Source: Candidatus Latescibacterota bacterium
GTDB lineage: Bacteria > Latescibacterota > UBA2968 > UBA8231
Direction of reading: 5' to 3'
DNA length: 64,000 nt
Assembly: GCA_965248265.1 (NCBI GenBank)
Contig: CBDFJF010000002.1
Location: 3,328,001 to 3,392,000, forward strand
The notes beneath the pieces are model-generated. The model was not told the DNA's origin. It saw only the letters and a program-made list of their open reading frames with translations, and searched no databases. How positions within the stretch are numbered: position 1 is the first letter of the stretch; each line of letters opens with the position of its first letter. Positions 1,006 to 15,040 of the stretch are shown piece by piece. Made by a program: the position numbers and the translations under genes.

Positions 1006-1272
1006 ATGCCCAAGGAAGGTCTGCTCACAGCGAATGACGTAGCCGGTTACCTGAGGTGCTCCGTGTCCACGGTCCGCCGGCTGGTGGTACGGACGGAAAT
1101 CCCTCATTTCCGTGTCAGCAAGTTGGTCCGTTTTCGGCGAAGCGATATCGATGCCTGGTTACTGAAACACCGCGAGGGCGGACTGGCTGCGGAGAGTCTC
1201 AAACTACCCGAAGACCACCCCGATCAGCTGCCGCTGTTCGGGCGCGAGATTGCCCGGGACTGGGACCTGTGA
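1006..1272 (+). CDS. helix-turn-helix DNA-binding protein (excisionase-like, HTH_17)
   Basis: LLTANDVAGYLRCSVSTVRRLV...IPHFRV..LVRFRRSDIDAWL pattern. Confidence 0.85.
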   Translation: MPKEGLLTANDVAGYLRCSVSTVRRLVVRTEIPHFRVSKLVRFRRSDIDAWLLKHREGGLAAESLKLPEDHPDQLPLFGREIARDWDL

Positions 1273-2825
1273 GACCGATAGCGGCGGTCACGGCACTCGG
1301 CTGGGCTCTGGTGCTGTCCGCGTGTGGTTTGCCCGGCCGGGATAATCCCGCTGATCCCGGTGCTCCCGGCGAGGACGAAGATCCCGGCATCGAGTTCATT
1401 GCCACGATCCCGGAAGGCGTTGGGTTCACGGGAGATCGTTTCGCCGAAATACGGTACATTGTCACGGCCGCTGATATTCCGGATGGCCTGTCGGGGCCGA
1501 TGAATCTCGTCGGCGATCGTGCATCAGCGTTGGTGCGTGGCATACCGATCGGAACGAACAGGGTCATCGTCGTCGACGCCTTCGATCCCAATGAAATCCG
1601 CACATTTTCAGCCTCCGATACGATATCGGTAACGGCCAACTCTCCTCAAAGTGTCTCGCTCGTCTTTCAACGGCTCACGGGGACCATCGAAATTTCATCG
1701 GACCTGCCCCCGGAAATCACCCAGTTCGAAGTGAACGTAGTCGCTGATGGCGACACCGTCAGCTTCTCCTACGAAGTCTCCGGTGCAGTTCAGGAGCGGA
1801 TATCGGACATTCCCACTGGCACTGGAGTTTTAGTGGGAATGAGTGGCATTGATTCCGAGCAACAGGTGTTGCTACAGTCTACGGAACTGGCCAACGTTCA
1901 GAGTAATTTTGTCACCCACATCAGCGTCAACGCCGTCATCGGGGTTCTTCAGATTCGAGCGAATTTCCCTGGCTACATCCCCGTCGTCCCGATCGATCGT
2001 TTCAGTGATCTGGCCGGAACGTTCTTCAAACGCTCTGAACGGCTCCAGTTGCCGGCGGCCGACGAGCCGATCGACTTCGACGAAGACTTTCTGATGCGCA
2101 GCTTGGGGCCCAACGGTGAGGTCGTTGAGCAGTATCATTTTGATGCCAGGCCGAGCGCGCCGGCGCTCGTGTTCATGGCGGTTGATTTTCGCGGTGACCC
2201 CATCGTCGGCCAGCTTCCGGTGTTCGATGAAATCCCCGGAGACGAGGCCTACAACGACGTCAGGCGGGTGGTCGAGGTCGAAGTCGAGCGGGACTACAGG
2301 CCGAATGCGGCAACCTCATGGGCCATGATGGATGCTCAATACGAAGACACCACGATGACGGATCGGATCATGCACTGCGTCGTGGTTCCGGATGGATCCG
2401 TGGCCACCAAGCGCTTCGCTGCTGACATCCCGGTGGAGCTTCAGGATGGCTGGTACCGTGAGCAGATCGTCAAGTACCTGTTGTTCGAAAATCCCGAGAG
2501 TTCCCTGACCATCGATTTTGCCGGAAATAGTTTAAGCACTCCGATCATGTACGCGTTTCTGCAGAACGACATGGATGTCAGGGATGGTTTCGCAGTCGAT
2601 GACGATGGCAACACCCACAACGTGGTCACGCTGCTTCCCGGTCAACAGGGCTATTCTCCTCTATGGGCGTTGACCCTGTTCATACTGGATGCGTTCGATC
2701 GCGTTGCCGATGTGCCCAGCGCACAGTCGCAGGCTACCAATGTTGAAAACAGACTGGAACTGGAGGATGGAGCCGTCATCCTCGTCAATGCCCCCATAGT
2801 TGCCGTGCTCCCGAGCGGCTCTTGA
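1269..2825 (+). CDS. putative lipoprotein with repeated beta-rich domains
   Basis: GTG 1269 overlaps the upstream TGA; signal peptide with lipobox LSAC followed by RDNPADP; two internal repeats (VRGIPIGT / ISDIPTGT) and a C-terminal two-repeat region (AYNDVRRV / GYSPLW). Confidence 0.75.
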   Translation: MRPIAAVTALGWALVLSACGLPGRDNPADPGAPGEDEDPGIEFIATIPEGVGFTGDRFAEIRYIVTAADIPDGLSGPMNLVGDRASALVRGIPIGTNRVIVVDAFDPNEIRTFSASDTISVTANSPQSVSLVFQRLTGTIEISSDLPPEITQFEVNVVADGDTVSFSYEVSGAVQERISDIPTGTGVLVGMSGIDSEQQVLLQSTELANVQSNFVTHISVNAVIGVLQIRANFPGYIPVVPIDRFSDLAGTFFKRSERLQLPAADEPIDFDEDFLMRSLGPNGEVVEQYHFDARPSAPALVFMAVDFRGDPIVGQLPVFDEIPGDEAYNDVRRVVEVEVERDYRPNAATSWAMMDAQYEDTTMTDRIMHCVVVPDGSVATKRFAADIPVELQDGWYREQIVKYLLFENPESSLTIDFAGNSLSTPIMYAFLQNDMDVRDGFAVDDDGNTHNVVTLLPGQQGYSPLWALTLFILDAFDRVADVPSAQSQATNVENRLELEDGAVILVNAPIVAVLPSGS

Positions 2826-6831: not shown

Positions 6832-7599
6832 TTACATACTGGTCCAACCGCCATCGACGAAGAGGGTGTGGCCGGTGACATAGCTGGCCGCCTCGGATGC
6901 CAGAAACACAACAGCCCAGGCCACCTCTTCGGGTTGGCCCCACCGACCCATGGGAGTGCGGTCGACGACGCTCTGGCGCAGGCGGGGACGCTCGTTGACG
7001 GCCGCCGTCATTTCCGTCTCGATGTATGCCGGCGCCACCGCGTTGACGCGCACGCCGGAGCGGGCCCATTCGACCGCCATACTCCTGGTCATGGCGGCGA
7101 GCGCGGCCTTACTGGCAGAGTAGGGTGCCAGCCGCGGCAATGCACGGACGGCCGCAATCGATGAGACGTTGACGACGGAGCCACTGCCTTGCTCGAGCAT
7201 GGTCGATCCTACCGTGCGAATGATTCCAAAGGTGGCATTGACGTTGACGTCCAGAATCTGGGCCCATTCTTCGGGCTCTACCTTCTCGATGCCTTTGACG
7301 ATCGGACTTATGGCCGCATTGTTGACGAGGATATCGATCTTGCCGTTATCCTCCAGCAGCTGTTCGTTCAGGGCGCGGACAGCGCTGGGATTTGAGATGT
7401 CGCAGAGAATGGACGTTGCCTTCCCACCTTGCCCACGTATAGAATCGACGGTTTCATCCAATTGCGCGCTGGTGCGGCTGGTGACGACGACTTCAGCTCC
7501 AGACTCGGCCATCGCCACGGCACTGGCGCGGCCGATTCCACGGCCACCCCCGGTCACGAGGGCTCTCTTGCCAGCCAAGCTGAAGGGAGTGAGGTCCAT
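6832..7599 (-). CDS. short-chain dehydrogenase/reductase (classical SDR)
   Basis: TGGGRGIG, NNAA, YSASK catalytic motif, VDGG C-terminus. Confidence 0.93.
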   Translation of the reverse strand: MDLTPFSLAGKRALVTGGGRGIGRASAVAMAESGAEVVVTSRTSAQLDETVDSIRGQGGKATSILCDISNPSAVRALNEQLLEDNGKIDILVNNAAISPIVKGIEKVEPEEWAQILDVNVNATFGIIRTVGSTMLEQGSGSVVNVSSIAAVRALPRLAPYSASKAALAAMTRSMAVEWARSGVRVNAVAPAYIETEMTAAVNERPRLRQSVVDRTPMGRWGQPEEVAWAVVFLASEAASYVTGHTLFVDGGWTSM

Positions 7600-7657
7600 C
7601 TTTATCCTCGGTGCGTCGGTGAGTCAGGTTTTCTTGAGGCGGACTTGAACATAAACA

Positions 7658-9346
7658 ATGGTTGATTCGCTCACGAGGATGTGGGTCCTGATCGGATCTC
7701 ACTTGAATACCCGGGCGCAGGCCCAGCTGGTGGGAATACTACCCAACGAACTCTCGGCTGCGGTGCGGGGCCAGTTGCGCCGGGGGATGAACGATGATGT
7801 TCTGGCAGAATGGGGCGAGCTGTCACCAGCTGAAAGGCGCGTCCTCTCCGGGTTTCGGGCACATCGATCAGATGAGACTGATCACGACGAGCAAGAGGAA
7901 ACATCAGAAGAGGCACAGGACCCTGCAGAGACCGACGACGATATCGAACATTCGCCACTGTGCGCGGCGCTACTCAGTTTGGCCCTCCTGGACGCACCCC
8001 GGCCGGTGGATGCCGCTTCCCTTCTTGTTGAGTTGCCATTGAGGTTTCAGGGCCAGATCATCAATCTCATCGTTACCAGCTCCGTTTTCAGCGCGACCTG
8101 GGGACTCGAGCGCGACGAGCGGGACCTTGTCGAGGGCATGCGCGAGATCATGACGTCGGCTGACAGTTGGGGAGTGCTTCCCTCCTGTGAGATTCTCAGG
8201 GCCATCGACACGACGCGACGGCTGCGGCGCGCCATCAGTTCCACTGCCGCGATCGACGAAGATGCGGTGACGATTCTTCAGAATCATCTCTTCGTCTTCG
8301 CTGATGTTATCCGTTTGACGGACAGAGAGCTTCAGGCCCTCTTGAACCGGGTCGCCAATCAGCCGCTCGCCAGAGCCTTGAGTGACGCACCGGATGCGGT
8401 GCGCGATCGACTGCTCACAAACATGTCCCCAAGACGTTCCAGGCTGGTCGCGGAAGAGGGTGAGTTCATGGGGGAACTCGAAGTCGAAGATATACGAGCG
8501 GATCAGCGGGACATCCTGGAGACGCTGCGTGAGCTGTACGAGAGCGGTGACATCTCCACGTATTTCGGCTCCGTCAGGGGCAGGGGGGAGAGCACCGAGC
8601 CCGAAGACGACGTGGAAGGTGATTCAGGGTTGGAGCTTTTAGAGGAAGAGGAGCCAGAGCCGGAACTCGGGGCTCGACCAGCCACGGCCAAAGAGCACGA
8701 GCAAGCCTCCCCGCGCACCGGTCGCTCCCGCCTGGTTCCCATACTTGTCGCCAGCATCGCCGGAACCGGACTGATGACCTTGCTCATCCTTGTGGTCTCT
8801 CAGTTCGGAGATGACGATGAGAGTCGGAGAGAGTCTGAAGCTCGCGGAAACCGCGCCTCCGGAGCGGGCAGCAAATTGGATGGACAGGTACTGGTGCAAA
8901 GAGAAATCAGTGACACGCAGTCCGCGCAACCCGCTGCCGATGAGGCGCATGGACAAGCCGATCCAGGAGGCGAAATCAGCGCGGTCATTGAGTTCCCCGG
9001 GAAAAGCGGTCAGACAACAGCCGAGGTGCGGGTGGATGAGGGTAGTGAACTGGAAGACCAGGAGGCTGCCATGGACAGCGTCAATACGGAATCCCGCGGC
9101 GACCTGTACTTGCGGATGGGGCGGGTTTCTTGTGCCGTCGTCAGCGAGACAGACACTTTTGTGGTGCGATCACCGCTGGTCGCAGTACGGGGTGCGCCCG
9201 GGGCCGTCTTTGCCGTGCAGGTGGTTCTGGACGCTTCAACGACCGTGTTCGTCGAGCGCGGCCAGGTCGAGGTGAAATCGGAGCGCCAGTGGAGCGACGA
9301 TCCCGTGGTTCTGAGGGCGGGACAGCGTCAGCGATTCGAACCCTGA
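7658..9346 (+). CDS. FliG-like protein fused to a TM helix and a FecR-like C-terminal domain
   Basis: FliG-like segments EHSPLCAALLS, LFVFADV and NMSPRRSRLVAEE...QRDIL..LREL.ESG; TM LVPILVASIAGTGLMTLLILVV; FecR-like tail AVRG...F.V...TTVFVERGQVEV...LRAGQ. Confidence 0.75.
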   Translation: MVDSLTRMWVLIGSHLNTRAQAQLVGILPNELSAAVRGQLRRGMNDDVLAEWGELSPAERRVLSGFRAHRSDETDHDEQEETSEEAQDPAETDDDIEHSPLCAALLSLALLDAPRPVDAASLLVELPLRFQGQIINLIVTSSVFSATWGLERDERDLVEGMREIMTSADSWGVLPSCEILRAIDTTRRLRRAISSTAAIDEDAVTILQNHLFVFADVIRLTDRELQALLNRVANQPLARALSDAPDAVRDRLLTNMSPRRSRLVAEEGEFMGELEVEDIRADQRDILETLRELYESGDISTYFGSVRGRGESTEPEDDVEGDSGLELLEEEEPEPELGARPATAKEHEQASPRTGRSRLVPILVASIAGTGLMTLLILVVSQFGDDDESRRESEARGNRASGAGSKLDGQVLVQREISDTQSAQPAADEAHGQADPGGEISAVIEFPGKSGQTTAEVRVDEGSELEDQEAAMDSVNTESRGDLYLRMGRVSCAVVSETDTFVVRSPLVAVRGAPGAVFAVQVVLDASTTVFVERGQVEVKSERQWSDDPVVLRAGQRQRFEP

Positions 9347-9372
9347 ATCGGCCGCCGAGCCTGAAATCGTCC

Positions 9373-10152
9373 TCATGCACCCGCTTTCAGAACCCTGTCT
9401 TCGAGGACAGGGAATGTCGACCTCGCCTCAGCCACGAGAGAGAGTTCGATGTCGGCCGTCATCACCGTTTCCAGATCTCCTGCCGACGCTTGAGGTATGC
9501 CCCAGGGATCGACTACCATGCTGTGCCCGGCGTACAGCATCCCGTCCTGTTTACCGCAGCTGTTGCAGGAGATGAGGTAGCACTGGTTTTCGAGCGCGCG
9601 CACCCGGTTGAACAGTTGCCAGTGTTCCAGGCGCTGGTGGGGCCAGCCCGAGCAGACCAAAAAGCACTCGGCACCCGCGTCTGACAGGCTCCTGAAGAGC
9701 TCTGGAAAGCGCAGGTCGTAACAGGTGGCCAGACCGAACGTGGCCAGTGGAGTGCTGACCAGTTTCGGCGTTTGTCCCGGGGTCAAAAGCTCGGCCTCAC
9801 GGGATTGGTAGCCGAACAGATGGATCTTGTGGTAATACTCCAGTACCTCTCCTGAGGGCGCGAGGAAGGCAGCGGTGTTGTGCAGCCCGGCATCCGATTC
9901 CGCCACCCAGCTTCCAGCGTAGAAGTGACAGTTCTTTTGCCGGGCGATCTCCTGCATGGCGTGGAGGGTTGGTCCATCGAACGACTCGGCCTCCGCCTCC
10001 ATGCGCTCGTAGCAGAACGCGCCGGTCGTCCACAGTTCAGGCAACAGGAGCAGATCGACATCCTCCAAGGGTTCGATCAGCTTGGTGGCGCGACGGATTT
10101 GCTCCACTTTCGAACGCTCACTGGCGCTGAGTTGAACAGAGGCTATGCGCAT
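9373..10152 (-). CDS. carbon-nitrogen hydrolase (nitrilase superfamily)
   Basis: LPELW, YHKIHLF and TCYDLRFPE catalytic triad motifs; RALENQ; start set at MRIASVQ. Confidence 0.92.
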   Translation of the reverse strand: MRIASVQLSASERSKVEQIRRATKLIEPLEDVDLLLLPELWTTGAFCYERMEAEAESFDGPTLHAMQEIARQKNCHFYAGSWVAESDAGLHNTAAFLAPSGEVLEYYHKIHLFGYQSREAELLTPGQTPKLVSTPLATFGLATCYDLRFPELFRSLSDAGAECFLVCSGWPHQRLEHWQLFNRVRALENQCYLISCNSCGKQDGMLYAGHSMVVDPWGIPQASAGDLETVMTADIELSLVAEARSTFPVLEDRVLKAGA

Positions 10153-12085: not shown

Positions 12086-12327
12086 ATCACCTACATTTTT
12101 TTTGTGGGCGGAGTACTCGCGATGACGGCCATTGGTATGGATATGGCTACAGCTTTCGGTGCGGTAGCTGCCGCCTTGGGCAATATCGGACCTTAGGTGA
12201 ACTGGACCCGAACGACAACTGTTTTCAGACCCCTCTTGTTGGGAAATGGCTCCTGGCCCTTTTTATGCTCCTTGGTCGACTCGAAATCTTTACCGTGCTG
12301 GTCCTATTCTCTCCGGCATTCTGTTGA
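12086..12327 (+). pseudogene. trkH: frameshifted 3' remnant of TrkH potassium uptake permease
   Basis: One frame reads ...AFGAVAAALGNIGP* and the shifted frame continues LGELDP.DN...GKWLLALFMLLGRLEIFTVLVLFSPAF, the TrkH C-terminus; the N-terminal bulk is missing. Confidence 0.8.
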
Positions 12328-12329
12328 AA

Positions 12330-14024
12330 ATGAAACCACTTCTTTCCGAATTTGCTCGCCTCAGCAGCGATCAGGCCACACGCCGAAATCTGCGGCCTCT
12401 TCTATGGCTCCTGCTCATCCTCTTCTCTTTAGTCGTCATCTACAGCCTGATCTTTCACGTGCTGATGGCAATTGAAGGCCGGGAGTTCACGTGGTTGTCG
12501 GGCGTCTACTGGACACTCACGACCATGTCGACGCTGGGGTACGGCGACATAACCTTCACCGGCAACCTGGGTCGCGTATTCTCGATCTTCGTGCTCCTCA
12601 CGGGCACGGTGTGCATGCTCATTCTGCTTCCGTTCACTTTGATACAGTTCTTCTATCTGCCCTTCGTGCAAGCCCAGGCCGCCGCTCGCGTCCCCCGAGA
12701 GCTGCCGGAAAACACCAGGGATCACGTGATCCTCACGCACTTTGATCCCGTATCCAGTGCGATCGCCCGCAAGCTCAAGCAGTATGGCCATTCTTATACA
12801 CTGCTTGCGCCGAGCCTGGAGGAGGCGGAGCGTCTTTCAGACCTGGGTTTCAGCGTAATCTTGGGATACGCTGACGATGCGGAGACCCTTCGCAATGCAC
12901 GCATAGACCGTGCTGCCCTGGTAACGTTGACCTCCAGCGACGTGGTCAGCACCAAGGTGGCGTTTTCGGCAAGGCAGCTGGCGCCCGACGTCCCCATAAT
13001 CGCCACGGCGGACAAAGAGGCATCTGTAGACATCCTCGAGCTGAGTGGCTGTTCCCAGGTCCTGCAACTGCGCGAAATGTTGGGCCGCGCTCTGGCCAGA
13101 CTTGCACGTGGCGGGAAATTCATTGCTCACGTGATCGGTCAGTTCGATGAGCTGCATATCGCGGAGGCGACGGCCACCGGTACCCCCATGGTCGGAAAGA
13201 CCCTTGAAGAGATCGGGTTGCGCAGGGAGATGGGAATCACCGTGATCGGCGTCTGGGAGCGGGGTCAGTTTTCGACTGCTCTGCCCGAGTCCAAGGTCCA
13301 CGAGAACACCGTTCTGGTTTTCGCCTGCAGCCGCGATCAACTGGACCAATTCGAAGATACTTTTCGCGCTTACAACAATGTCGAAGAACCGGTGGTTATT
13401 CTTGGCGGCGGGCGCGTGGGACGGGGTACGGCCCGCTCCCTCGACGCCATGGGACTGGACTACCGCATTGTCGAAAAGTTGCCTGAGCGCGTTCTCAACC
13501 CGGAAAAATGTGTCGTGGGTGATGCTGCGGAGTTATCTGTGCTGGAAGAAGCCGGAATCATGCGCACTTCGACGGCAATCGTAACCACGCACGACGACGA
13601 CTTGAACATCTATTTGACCATCTATTGCCGTCGCTTACGGCCCGATCTTCAGATCATCAGCCGGACCACGGTAGAACGCCACATTCATCTCTTGCACGAA
13701 GCCGGCGCCGATTTCGTGCTCTCCACCGCCTCGATGGGTGCCGACGCCGTCCTGCATTACTTCCTGCACGGTGACACGTTGATGATCGCGGAAGGATTGG
13801 ATGTATTCAGGGTCAAAATACCGGAATTGCTGTCGAACAAAACGATCGCGGACGCGCATATTCGTCGGGATACAGGGTGTACCGTAGTTGCTCTCGGCGT
13901 CGATGGCACGATGCAGGTAAACCCGGACCCTCAATTGCCTTTGCAGATTGACGCGGAAATGCTGCTCATCGGTAGCAGTGCCGGTCAAAAGCGCTTCTTC
14001 GAGCTTTACTCCGACGCCAGGTAA
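12330..14024 (+). CDS. potassium channel with tandem RCK (TrkA-N/TrkA-C) domains
   Basis: TTMSTLGYGD selectivity filter between two TM helices; two RCK units, the second with ILGGGRVG. Confidence 0.9.
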   Translation: MKPLLSEFARLSSDQATRRNLRPLLWLLLILFSLVVIYSLIFHVLMAIEGREFTWLSGVYWTLTTMSTLGYGDITFTGNLGRVFSIFVLLTGTVCMLILLPFTLIQFFYLPFVQAQAAARVPRELPENTRDHVILTHFDPVSSAIARKLKQYGHSYTLLAPSLEEAERLSDLGFSVILGYADDAETLRNARIDRAALVTLTSSDVVSTKVAFSARQLAPDVPIIATADKEASVDILELSGCSQVLQLREMLGRALARLARGGKFIAHVIGQFDELHIAEATATGTPMVGKTLEEIGLRREMGITVIGVWERGQFSTALPESKVHENTVLVFACSRDQLDQFEDTFRAYNNVEEPVVILGGGRVGRGTARSLDAMGLDYRIVEKLPERVLNPEKCVVGDAAELSVLEEAGIMRTSTAIVTTHDDDLNIYLTIYCRRLRPDLQIISRTTVERHIHLLHEAGADFVLSTASMGADAVLHYFLHGDTLMIAEGLDVFRVKIPELLSNKTIADAHIRRDTGCTVVALGVDGTMQVNPDPQLPLQIDAEMLLIGSSAGQKRFFELYSDAR

Positions 14025-14029
14025 CACAC

Positions 14030-15040
14030 TCAACTGCGCGTCATTTTCTTTCCGAACACGACCACGAACAGGGCCATCATGAACGCACCTATGAAAGCTT
14101 GCGCCGCGGCCAGCGGGCGCACAATCCAGATCTGACGCGCTTCATCGCTGTAGCCCAGTGTCGTAAAGGTGACTACGCTGTAATAGACACATTCAGCAAA
14201 GTGTGAGAAGTTAGTCTCCAAACTGGCTGAAGGGTCAAACTTCACTGGCCCCTCGGGACTCAGGATACCGGCGAAGAAATAGCCGACGCCGCAGATCAGG
14301 TTGAGGGCCAGAGCGGAGATGATTACTCGTGGAGGGCTTTCGCCGTAAGCGCAGACGAGGTCGATCAGCTTGGACCATGCCCTGCCCCCCGACCAAAGCG
14401 GCATCTGTTTGCGCCTCATTGTCATCTCCTGCCAGAAGAACCGACCCGCCTGGTTGGCCTCGGCTCGCGCTGCATACACCCGCCGCAAGGAGCGATATAC
14501 CTCCTCGGCCTCGTGGTACTCAGCCAGTGCCTTCTTCCGATCACCCTGACGCTCAGCCTGCATAGCTCGCTGCTCGTTCACGCAGCGCTCACCCCACTCT
14601 GTCCGTTCCAGCCGGGCGCCCTCGAGGCTTGCCCCCAGCAACTCGGCGTTCTGCAGCAGGGCCTCGTTCAGGTTGGCGCCCGCCAGGTTCGCCTTGAGCA
14701 GTACCGCCCCGCGCAGGTCCACATTGTAGAGGCTGGATCCCTGCATGTTGGCCCGGAACAGATTCGCTCCGCGCAGATCGCGGTTCCTCTTGTTGCTGAG
14801 CTTCAAGCCCTCTAGCGAGGCGTAGCGAAGGGAGAAGCCCTCCATCGATTGCCCGCTCTCGGCCCATTCCTCGAGAAGCTCGCACACGTTCCGATCTTCT
14901 TTCGAAATGTCGGCATCGTGCCAGAAGCACAGCCCCTTCGTGCCGTCAACGGAAGCGGCCGGGCAGCGGCTGCCGTCGCTGCGCACAAAGCCGCACGATT
15001 GTCTTGTTGCTTCACCTGAGATCCCGACCTCTTCTGCCAT
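14030..15040 (-). CDS. pentapeptide-repeat protein with C-terminal 2TM ion-channel domain
   Basis: N-terminal C..C..CFWH cluster; A(N/D)LxG pentapeptide repeats; YGESP; YYSVVTFTTLGYSD. Confidence 0.85.
   Translation of the reverse strand: MAEEVGISGEATRQSCGFVRSDGSRCPAASVDGTKGLCFWHDADISKEDRNVCELLEEWAESGQSMEGFSLRYASLEGLKLSNKRNRDLRGANLFRANMQGSSLYNVDLRGAVLLKANLAGANLNEALLQNAELLGASLEGARLERTEWGERCVNEQRAMQAERQGDRKKALAEYHEAEEVYRSLRRVYAARAEANQAGRFFWQEMTMRRKQMPLWSGGRAWSKLIDLVCAYGESPPRVIISALALNLICGVGYFFAGILSPEGPVKFDPSASLETNFSHFAECVYYSVVTFTTLGYSDEARQIWIVRPLAAAQAFIGAFMMALFVVVFGKKMTRS

Follow-up and report, generated by a model that had tools for sequence, protein, structure and literature searches.

One gene in a 64,000-nucleotide stretch of a Candidatus Latescibacterota genome (assembly GCA_965248265.1, contig CBDFJF010000002.1, positions 3,328,001 to 3,392,000; 'the window' below) encodes a protein, P0001, in which domains of the flagellar rotor protein FliG are joined by a single membrane helix to a FecR-type domain that is predicted to be periplasmic. 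We rate the FliG-membrane helix-FecR architecture as categorically new; what is said here of its mechanism is a proposal. The original prediction, made from the letters of the window, had seen in this gene the reuse of FliG in a membrane-spanning chimera, and that much is supported. The reading we favour, with a probability of about 0.45, is of a membrane-tethered mimic of the rotor that binds MotA off the C-ring and docks, stores or disengages stators. With the ties to FliF and FliM lost, an anchor of its own gained and the stator charges the best kept, a tethered rotor mimic is the simplest interpretation.

Stator-contact charges

In the available portions of PMC6079164 and bioRxiv 10.1101/2024.04.30.591856, R281, D288 and D289 of FliG are given as the primary stator contacts (FliG_C residues are numbered here as in E. 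coli FliG, unless said to be those of P0001). Their equivalents lie in the P0001 torque-helix stretch NMSPRRSRLVAEE:

8420..8467, + strand: torque helix (aa, amino acids, 255-270 of P0001), in which R259 corresponds to R281, E266 and E267 correspond to D288 and D289, and R260 is family-specific; each is kept in 37 of 37 orthologs

The original prediction had picked out a torque helix with its arginine and acidic pair, and was right to do so. FliG_C identity across the 37 orthologs, some of them near-duplicates, averages 40% with a minimum of 20%, and five of the 122 columns of the domain alignment are invariant and three all-acidic. S279, R281, Q248 and R313 never vary, position 282 is always arginine (it is valine in six of the seven canonical FliG paralogs of the source genome, G000), and positions 288 and 289 are always acidic. 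Among the 51 FliG-bearing proteins within the best 150 representatives of the database search described below for the FecR-type domain, 42 have the motif S.RR.....[DE][DE], and in ten other FliG_C fusions each primary charge position is kept in seven. The fold goes with the charges: the modelled FliG_C domain superposes on 1QC7 with a root-mean-square deviation (rmsd) of 0.7-0.8 A, and on the MotAB-bound FliG of 8UCS with 1.2 A over 87 residues.

On the partner's side, all 23 MotAs of the class have the MotA motif RREGILALE unchanged. The original prediction had also entertained a motor of ExbB/TolQ type; this is weakened, and ExbB/TolQ was rejected as partner, by the lack of RREG in all three ExbB/TolQ-like proteins of the genome. 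Among motor partners MotA is the option that the data favour.

Domain order

The predicted frame was borne out as one open reading frame of 562 aa. Model confidence is given below as pLDDT (predicted local distance difference test); the model was built from 38 sequences (mean pLDDT 74) and replaced one from 12 sequences with a mean of 49. The features of the gene, apart from the torque helix, are these:

7658..9346, + strand: whole fusion gene, P0001; single open frame, with coinciding ortholog starts
7667..7855, + strand: N-terminal helical domain, a second FliG_M-type armadillo (ARM) domain, aa 4-66 (HHalign; pLDDT 86-95)
7856..7954, + strand: first acidic, disordered linker, aa 67-99 (pLDDT <50 at aa 79-96); contains EHSP, aa 97-100
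7955..8152, + strand: degenerate FliG_M ARM without EHPQ, aa 100-165 (HHalign P=96.0)
8255..8554, + strand: FliG_C domain, aa 200-299 (Pfam; structure superposition)
8288..8299, + strand: LFVF at the MFxF position, aa 211-214 (HHalign; alignment of 37 orthologs)
8558..8569, + strand: TYFG, family-specific motif closing the FliG_C domain; Y in 36 of 37 orthologs, nearly invariant in a larger alignment
8579..8725, + strand: second acidic linker, aa 308-356, disordered (pLDDT <50), with basic residues at its end before the membrane helix
8732..8806, + strand: single membrane helix, aa 359-383, predicted N-in (hydropathy; structure model)
8969..9343, + strand: FecR-type beta domain, aa 438-562, equivalent to the PupR CJM subdomain, with no STN after it (profiles; structure)

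The order is thus a FliG_M-type domain (M'), FliG_M, FliG_C, acidic linker, membrane helix, a further linker and the FecR-type domain. Pfam recognises FliG_C at aa 200-299 with E=2.7e-24 and 86 bits, where the cut-off is 23.3, and at E<=0.1 gives no FecR, FliG_M or FliG_N match in P0001; against the NCBIfam fliG model (TIGR00207) the protein scores 72.8 bits, below the equivalog cut-off of 226.7. A profile of 18 orthologs matches the middle and C-terminal domains of FliG over aa 108-306 (HHalign P=99.7) and the FliG of PDB entry 3AJC (E=2.5e-37). For aa 1-66 HHalign gives P=78.6 to FliG_M versus P=2.5 to FliG_N, which disposes of FliG_N as the identity of the N-terminus and makes the order M'-M-C; family-2 orthologs have a Pfam FliG_M match in the same place (aa ~10-68), and no Pfam FliG_N match was seen in P0001 or in the homologs and orthologs scanned. 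The FliG domain order that had been proposed for the first ~300 aa therefore stands for the middle and C-terminal domains, and fails for FliG_N. FliG_N is the domain by which FliG binds FliF, and the co-folded complexes 5TDY and 5WUJ (FliG_N with FliF) are among the entries listed by the structure search. A pattern scan of the genome contigs with the first alignment (A1) gave no match.

The EHPQ motif of FliG contacts FliM, according to the available part of PMC4642947. EHSP had been offered as its counterpart, a claim overturned by its register, about five residues off, and by its presence in 4 of 37 orthologs; the string HPQ, at any place in the sequence, occurs in 1 of 37. In three family-1 orthologs (the short forms L044, L045 and L174) the FliG_M ARM has been deleted and the stator-contact charges are still kept. 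The FliG-like cytoplasmic polymer that had been envisaged is weakened by the deletion of the middle domain in these three and by the loss of FliG_N and EHPQ. LFVF was correctly taken for the MFxF motif; at that position the second F is found in 30 of 37 orthologs (81%), and the first position is F or Y in most.

The acidic linker and lone membrane helix that had been described are both there. Hydropathy of the helix is at least 1.8 in 36 of 38 aligned orthologs, and the count of K and R is greater before it than after it in 27, equal in eight and lower in three; basic residues mostly preceding the helix, the topology that this suggests is N-in. Disordered linkers of ~55 residues flank the helix on both sides in the model.

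The FecR-type outer domain

Five agreeing lines make aa 438-562 a FecR-type domain, upholding the FecR-like beta domain of the original prediction. Direct Pfam FecR matches are missing in P0001, and its 16 closer homologs give just two, both sub-threshold; of seven family-2/4 orthologs scanned, three pass the cut-off. When a profile of the C-terminal domain is aligned with ten true FecR domains of relatives, P is 95.3 across 109 columns, and 97.0 with 38 sequences; 30 column shuffles never exceed 1.2, and reversal gives 0.18. Run on 1.84 billion representatives, the C-terminal profile finds 844 proteins at E<=1e-3, and among the best 150 of these all 24 FliG-less matches scanned are above the Pfam FecR cut-off. 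In structure, the model of aa 438-562 superposes on residues 120-231 of PupR (Z=13.5, rmsd 2.4 A, 109 residues), and Foldseek has 4M0N and 6OVK among its matches, at E~1e-4. In the ESM Atlas the domain leads to FecR clusters, at 0.93 (13% FecR members) and 0.89 (88%), a lead only; against PDB sequences the best match of the C-terminal profile is PupR at a non-significant E=0.12. The GT dipeptide is present in 5 of 38 of the FecR-type domains. Since 0-30 residues follow the domain in all 38 aligned orthologs, an STN subdomain is absent, and the accessible text of PMC7186176 has PupR needing both CJM and the following STN for receptor binding.

Likeness to known systems

To our knowledge FliG has been a soluble ring subunit, and the stator regulators known to us use unrelated folds. 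The fusion shares with FliG (3AJC, 1QC7, 8UCS) the FliG_M and FliG_C folds, the motif at the MFxF position and the equivalents of R281, D288 and D289; unlike FliG, it is without FliG_N, EHPQ, K264 and R297, reaches 72.8 bits where 226.7 are called for, and has a duplicated middle domain, a membrane anchor and a periplasmic domain in place of solubility. With no FliG_N, no EHPQ, a sub-threshold score and a bond to the membrane, it fails as a member of FliG. From the sigma regulators FecR, PupR and FoxR (PF04773; 6OVK, 4M0N), with which it shares a lone membrane helix and, after it, the CJM beta fold, it differs in the missing STN and in a cytoplasmic part that is all FliG-derived, the FliG domains standing where the anti-sigma domain would be; it fails as a FecR sigma regulator also.

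Bacillus MotI counts among the stator clutches and stabilisers, and Campylobacter FlgX is said to be one too. These and FapA have ferredoxin-like, beta-solenoid or PilZ folds, whereas the fusion would offer stators the contact domain of the rotor itself, copied and tied to the membrane. The action that we propose for it would resemble that of FapA, a Borrelia stator clutch (bioRxiv 10.64898/2026.10.14.759253, in the part available), with an unrelated fold. The nearest case of a spare FliG is also from Borrelia, where, in the accessible portion of PMC7225975, one of the two homologs FliG1 and FliG2 is dispensable for flagellar synthesis; here seven full FliGs and several fusions share one genome, relatives have up to 19 FliG_C matches and one of the proteins spans the membrane. 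The architecture had been put forward as uncharacterised, and a full-text search of the literature, in which subscription papers were few and supplements lay outside the scope, turned up no printed account of a FliG-FecR fusion or of FliG expansion in Latescibacterota.

Reality and spread of the fusion

An assembly chimera is ruled out: a contig from an independent study spans positions 7471-9700 with ~96% identity (94 differences, one insertion), and there are dozens of orthologs. A contig of one further run spans the same interval with no difference, possibly because it is the source sample. Twelve other matches in the protein database share the FliG_C annotation, one being the window's own protein.

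With a full-length profile (E<=1e-45, nine candidates scored per genome), 34 of 151 genomes of the phylum were matched, two of them by what looks like canonical FliG, which leaves 32 carriers, all within the four families of the window's class; in ten families outside the class none of 36 genomes had it. The C-terminal profile matches 31 of 101 class genomes, one (G030) through a true FecR; the locus was fetched for 29 of the remaining 30 (all but G074), and FliG-derived sequence lies upstream of the domain in every one. The gene is split by frameshifts or gaps in four genomes (G005, G042, G053 and G085), and is single-copy except in G092, where a second copy has FliG_M and lacks FliG_C. In a FastTree phylogeny of ~110 columns the main family is grouped with support 0.85 and families 2-4 are apart from family 1; weak as its deep support is, and with rows L061 and L063 mis-extracted, the tree is consistent with vertical descent.

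Related architectures exist beside the orthologs. A second FliG_C-membrane helix-FecR subfamily comprises P0055, P0076, P0079, P0080, P0081, P0091 and P0101, mostly of 360-400 aa, and P0053 and L161:3139-4284 are of a FliG_M-membrane helix-FecR form.

Co-distribution with flagellar genes

The window had been described as free of flagellar genes. It is so to the extent that no other FliG_C, FliF or FliM/N match is found in its 64 kb; elsewhere the genome has one complete set of export, rod, hook, ring and stator genes, with a single motA. Profiling against flagellar genes, which had been suggested at the outset, shows co-distribution with FliP and MotA: among the 101 genomes, 22 of the 35 that have FliP carry the fusion, as do 8 of the 66 that lack it; for a MotA match (fragments and paralogs included) the figures are 27 of 41 and, where there is none, 3 of 60. 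The Fisher p-values, 3.5e-7 for FliP and 3e-11 for MotA, are overstated because the genomes are kin. Of the eight carriers without FliP five were tested; flagellin is present in every one of these and full FlhA in two. In genus g14 the same four of 13 genomes hold both the fusion and FliP, and in five of five genomes lacking FliP or MotA the fusion is cleanly gone from its conserved locus (two further genomes had no sigma match). As the fusion tracks flagellar genes, the emptiness of the window in that respect makes no case for a non-flagellar role. Flagellin itself is expanded, with 5-10 matches per genome in G008, G053, G085, G016 and G028.

Dispersed and fused C-ring genes

The fusion is one product of an expansion, seen across the class, of C-ring genes that are dispersed or fused. 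G000 has 12 FliG_C matches, among them the seven full-length FliGs, which are dispersed, and 15 FliM/N C-terminal domains, and it has five full FliMs; relatives range from none to 19 FliG_C matches per genome. Between fliF and fliH, fliG is missing in G000 and in 7 of 7 other clusters for which both genes were fetched (two stretches without fliF being left out of the count), so that rotor composition is already unusual in the class. The clusters examined are G000:C2:4096000-4120100 (L026, L027) and L177-L191; in those of families 2 and 4 fliM is missing too and motB is doubled. Partial FliF paralogs lie outside the flagellar cluster at G000:C1:81444-82457 and C2:2882258-2882842.

This setting gives some credit to a structural accessory of the motor, in which the fusion would stack through its ARM domains on canonical FliG at the C-ring rim, present a normal torque helix to the stators and, by its FecR-type domain, fasten the ring of rotor or stators to a scaffold in the periplasm. 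The absence of fliG from 8 of 8 clusters, the retention of the MFxF-position motif, ARM_C and torque charges, and the co-distribution of the gene with flagella are all in keeping with it. We nevertheless hold it to be distinctly improbable: there is no FliG_N and no EHPQ, FliG_M is gone in three orthologs that keep the charges, seven canonical FliGs are already at hand in G000, and a subunit anchored toward the periplasm would be expected to hinder a rotating ring.

C-ring domains in G000 are also fused to a hybrid kinase, an adenylate cyclase, an ECF (extracytoplasmic function) sigma factor and an FGE-sulfatase domain. The kinase fusion is FliG_N and FliG_M with the hybrid kinase, and an ECF sigma operon holds FliG_N and FliG_M without FliG_C; ECF-FliM and adenylate-cyclase-FliG_C fusions are in G000 and an ECF-FliG_C fusion in G030. 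The loci L030:5624-9792, L036:8413-9537, L025:12154-13356, L024:9481-10194 and L143:8670-9512 between them supply the kinds FliG(N-M)-kinase, FliN-FGE, adenylate cyclase-FliG_C, ECF sigma-FliM, tandem FliG_C and ECF sigma-FliG_C. Chemotaxis genes are few: G000 has two methyl-accepting chemotaxis proteins (MCPs) and one CheW domain, while three of four other genomes tested (G084, G030 and G053, each with flagellar genes) lack any CheW match and have one weak MCP match at most.

From these fusions comes the main rival, signalling by a split FliG: the protein would sit in the membrane as a sensor and, through trans stacking of its ARM_C on the ARM_M of a truncated FliG(N-M), that of the FliG-kinase or of the ECF operon, would couple a signal from the periplasm to the output of a kinase or sigma factor, the stator playing no part. 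It has in its favour that both truncated partners are present in G000, the cyclase and ECF fusions just listed, the scarcity of chemotaxis genes, a topology shared with the FecR-type sigma regulators, and the existence of a subfamily without the RR motif and of the FliG_M-membrane helix-FecR form. It leaves unexplained why the torque-helix charges should be the most conserved positions; moreover, two ARM_M domains of its own could satisfy the fusion's ARM_C, and the STN subdomain is missing. We regard it as possible, though doubtful.

MotA-FliG_C fusions, in either order, occur in several class genomes (L129:8048-9361, L131:4454-5794, L132:6746-7942, L167:1017-2297), in effect a stator subunit with a rotor-contact domain of its own, and by L129, L131 and L132 FliG_C is paired with MotA outside the C-ring in the class. 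They also lend something to the idea of a second stator output, in which MotAB would work upon FliG_C at the end of its tether, and force, or the ion gradient's state, would reach the domain in the periplasm by way of the membrane helix, in the manner of TonB with ExbBD. The kept primary charges and a single-pass design with a periplasmic interaction domain suit such a device; disordered linkers of ~55 residues on either side of the helix would be poor transmitters of force, no dedicated MotAB is nearby and G000 has its one motA. We consider it highly unlikely.

How a tethered rotor mimic could work

For the rotor mimic favoured here, an N-in topology would place FliG_C on a leash of ~55 residues just below the membrane, at the level of the cytoplasmic face of MotA. 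Without the FliF-binding domain and the FliM-binding motif the fusion would be kept out of the C-ring. With the primary charges retained it could sit on the face of MotA that binds the rotor, and the loss of secondary charges would make this a holding contact and not a torque-passing one. The weakest step is the FecR-type domain, which may be an anchor or may bind some partner or ligand and so determine the place or time of stator capture; swimming could then be tuned to outside conditions through the FecR-type domain of a stator-catching decoy. That it binds MotA, where in the cell it lies and what its periplasmic domain does are all things that we infer.

A good deal weighs against this reading. 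The secondary stator contacts, K264 and R297, are lost: K264 is lysine in 2 of 37 fusion orthologs (arginine in five) versus 7 of 7 canonical FliGs, and R297 is arginine in none of 37 versus 7 of 7; the invariant R260 of P0001 and TYFG are foreign to FliG and may mark a new partner. The nine exceptions to the charge motif among the 51 FliG-bearing matches are one FliG_M-only protein, all seven of the second FliG_C-membrane helix-FecR subfamily, which are without RR, and P0074, with N at position 289. The gene is never in a flagellar operon. It is absent at its locus in 3 of 3 flagellated genomes checked, and 13 of the 35 FliP-positive genomes had no fusion match, one of which, G047, was later found to carry the fusion; a gene which tracks flagella yet is missing in some flagellated genomes is tied to them but dispensable. 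Three carriers, G008, G053 and G090, have no MotA match, and in G008, a single contig, the flagellar cluster has a deletion between fliI and fliR. Lastly, the genomes are non-independent kin, and an unrelated lipoprotein gene of the same block has gone from the same genomes, so that a broader shift in lifestyle may have a share in the loss of the fusion. In G008, at C1 ~2030000-2039000 (L187), a truncated fliI is joined to a truncated fliR and fliF is frameshifted, which may be either decay or an assembly error; 12 FliG_C matches and the short fusion remain in the genome.

A bolder version would give MotAB a second, non-ring client, a single-pass 'mini-rotor' gripped through the FliG torque helix that links stator use to the periplasmic FecR-type domain and is one piece of a class-wide system of C-ring fusions (to kinases, cyclases, sigma factors and MotA) regulating the motor in place of chemoreceptor arrays. 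Taken whole, we think it unlikely. Were the rotor-mimic reading true, the fusion, which four families retain, would control a rotary motor through molecular mimicry, a novel means of doing so, and could become a tool to keep MotAB rotor-bound where no C-ring is present. The FecR fold is given a setting outside iron-uptake signalling, and with up to 19 FliG_C matches per genome, fliG out of its operon and few chemotaxis genes, the wider question is how flagella are steered without the standard chemotaxis pathway.

Locus and neighbours

In family 1 the fusion sits in a syntenic housekeeping block of the order dxr (as we take that gene to be from its sequence), queD, lipoprotein, fadB, hpaB, SDR, fusion and sigma-70. 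The fusion is upstream of the sigma-70 gene in all 17 family-1 loci with downstream sequence, with a nitrilase gene intervening in the window. In families 2-4 it is directly 3' of a gene for a threonine-synthase-like pyridoxal-phosphate (PLP) enzyme in 12 of 12 loci. The neighbours of family 1 and of families 2-4 being different, no partner is indicated by them, and the link to the sigma factor, which holds in family 1 only, was rejected. That the protein is a FecR-like anti-sigma factor for the sigma-70 gene is hardly credible: to set against the 17 of 17 loci in which that gene lies 3' of the fusion, no such sigma was seen beside the fusion in families 2-4, the sigma factor has regions 1.2-4 and so is not ECF, its gene persists in 8 of 8 loci from which the fusion is gone, and the whole housekeeping block is syntenic.

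Signal reception of the canonical FecR kind, from TonB-dependent receptors, had been suggested, and has lost ground with the absence of STN in 38 of 38 orthologs and the lack of adjoining genes for it: the annotated first 22 kb of the window hold no gene for an ECF sigma factor or a TonB-dependent receptor, and none was seen at the relatives' loci, where neighbours were named solely by likeness to G000 genes.

The gene at 1056-2825 (+), for an uncharacterised, predicted lipoprotein, has a lipobox-like LSAC and no Pfam match over cut-off. It is found in 26 of 101 class genomes, all of family 1, 24 of them with a MotA match and the other two with FliG_C; it has been lost from the locus in five of five genomes without FliP or MotA and is kept in two flagellated, fusion-less genomes, and its product is a candidate motility-linked protein. 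Farther along, 14030-15040 (-) encodes a pentapeptide-repeat protein fused to a two-helix ion-channel domain, and faces a TrkA-type channel gene at 12246-14024.

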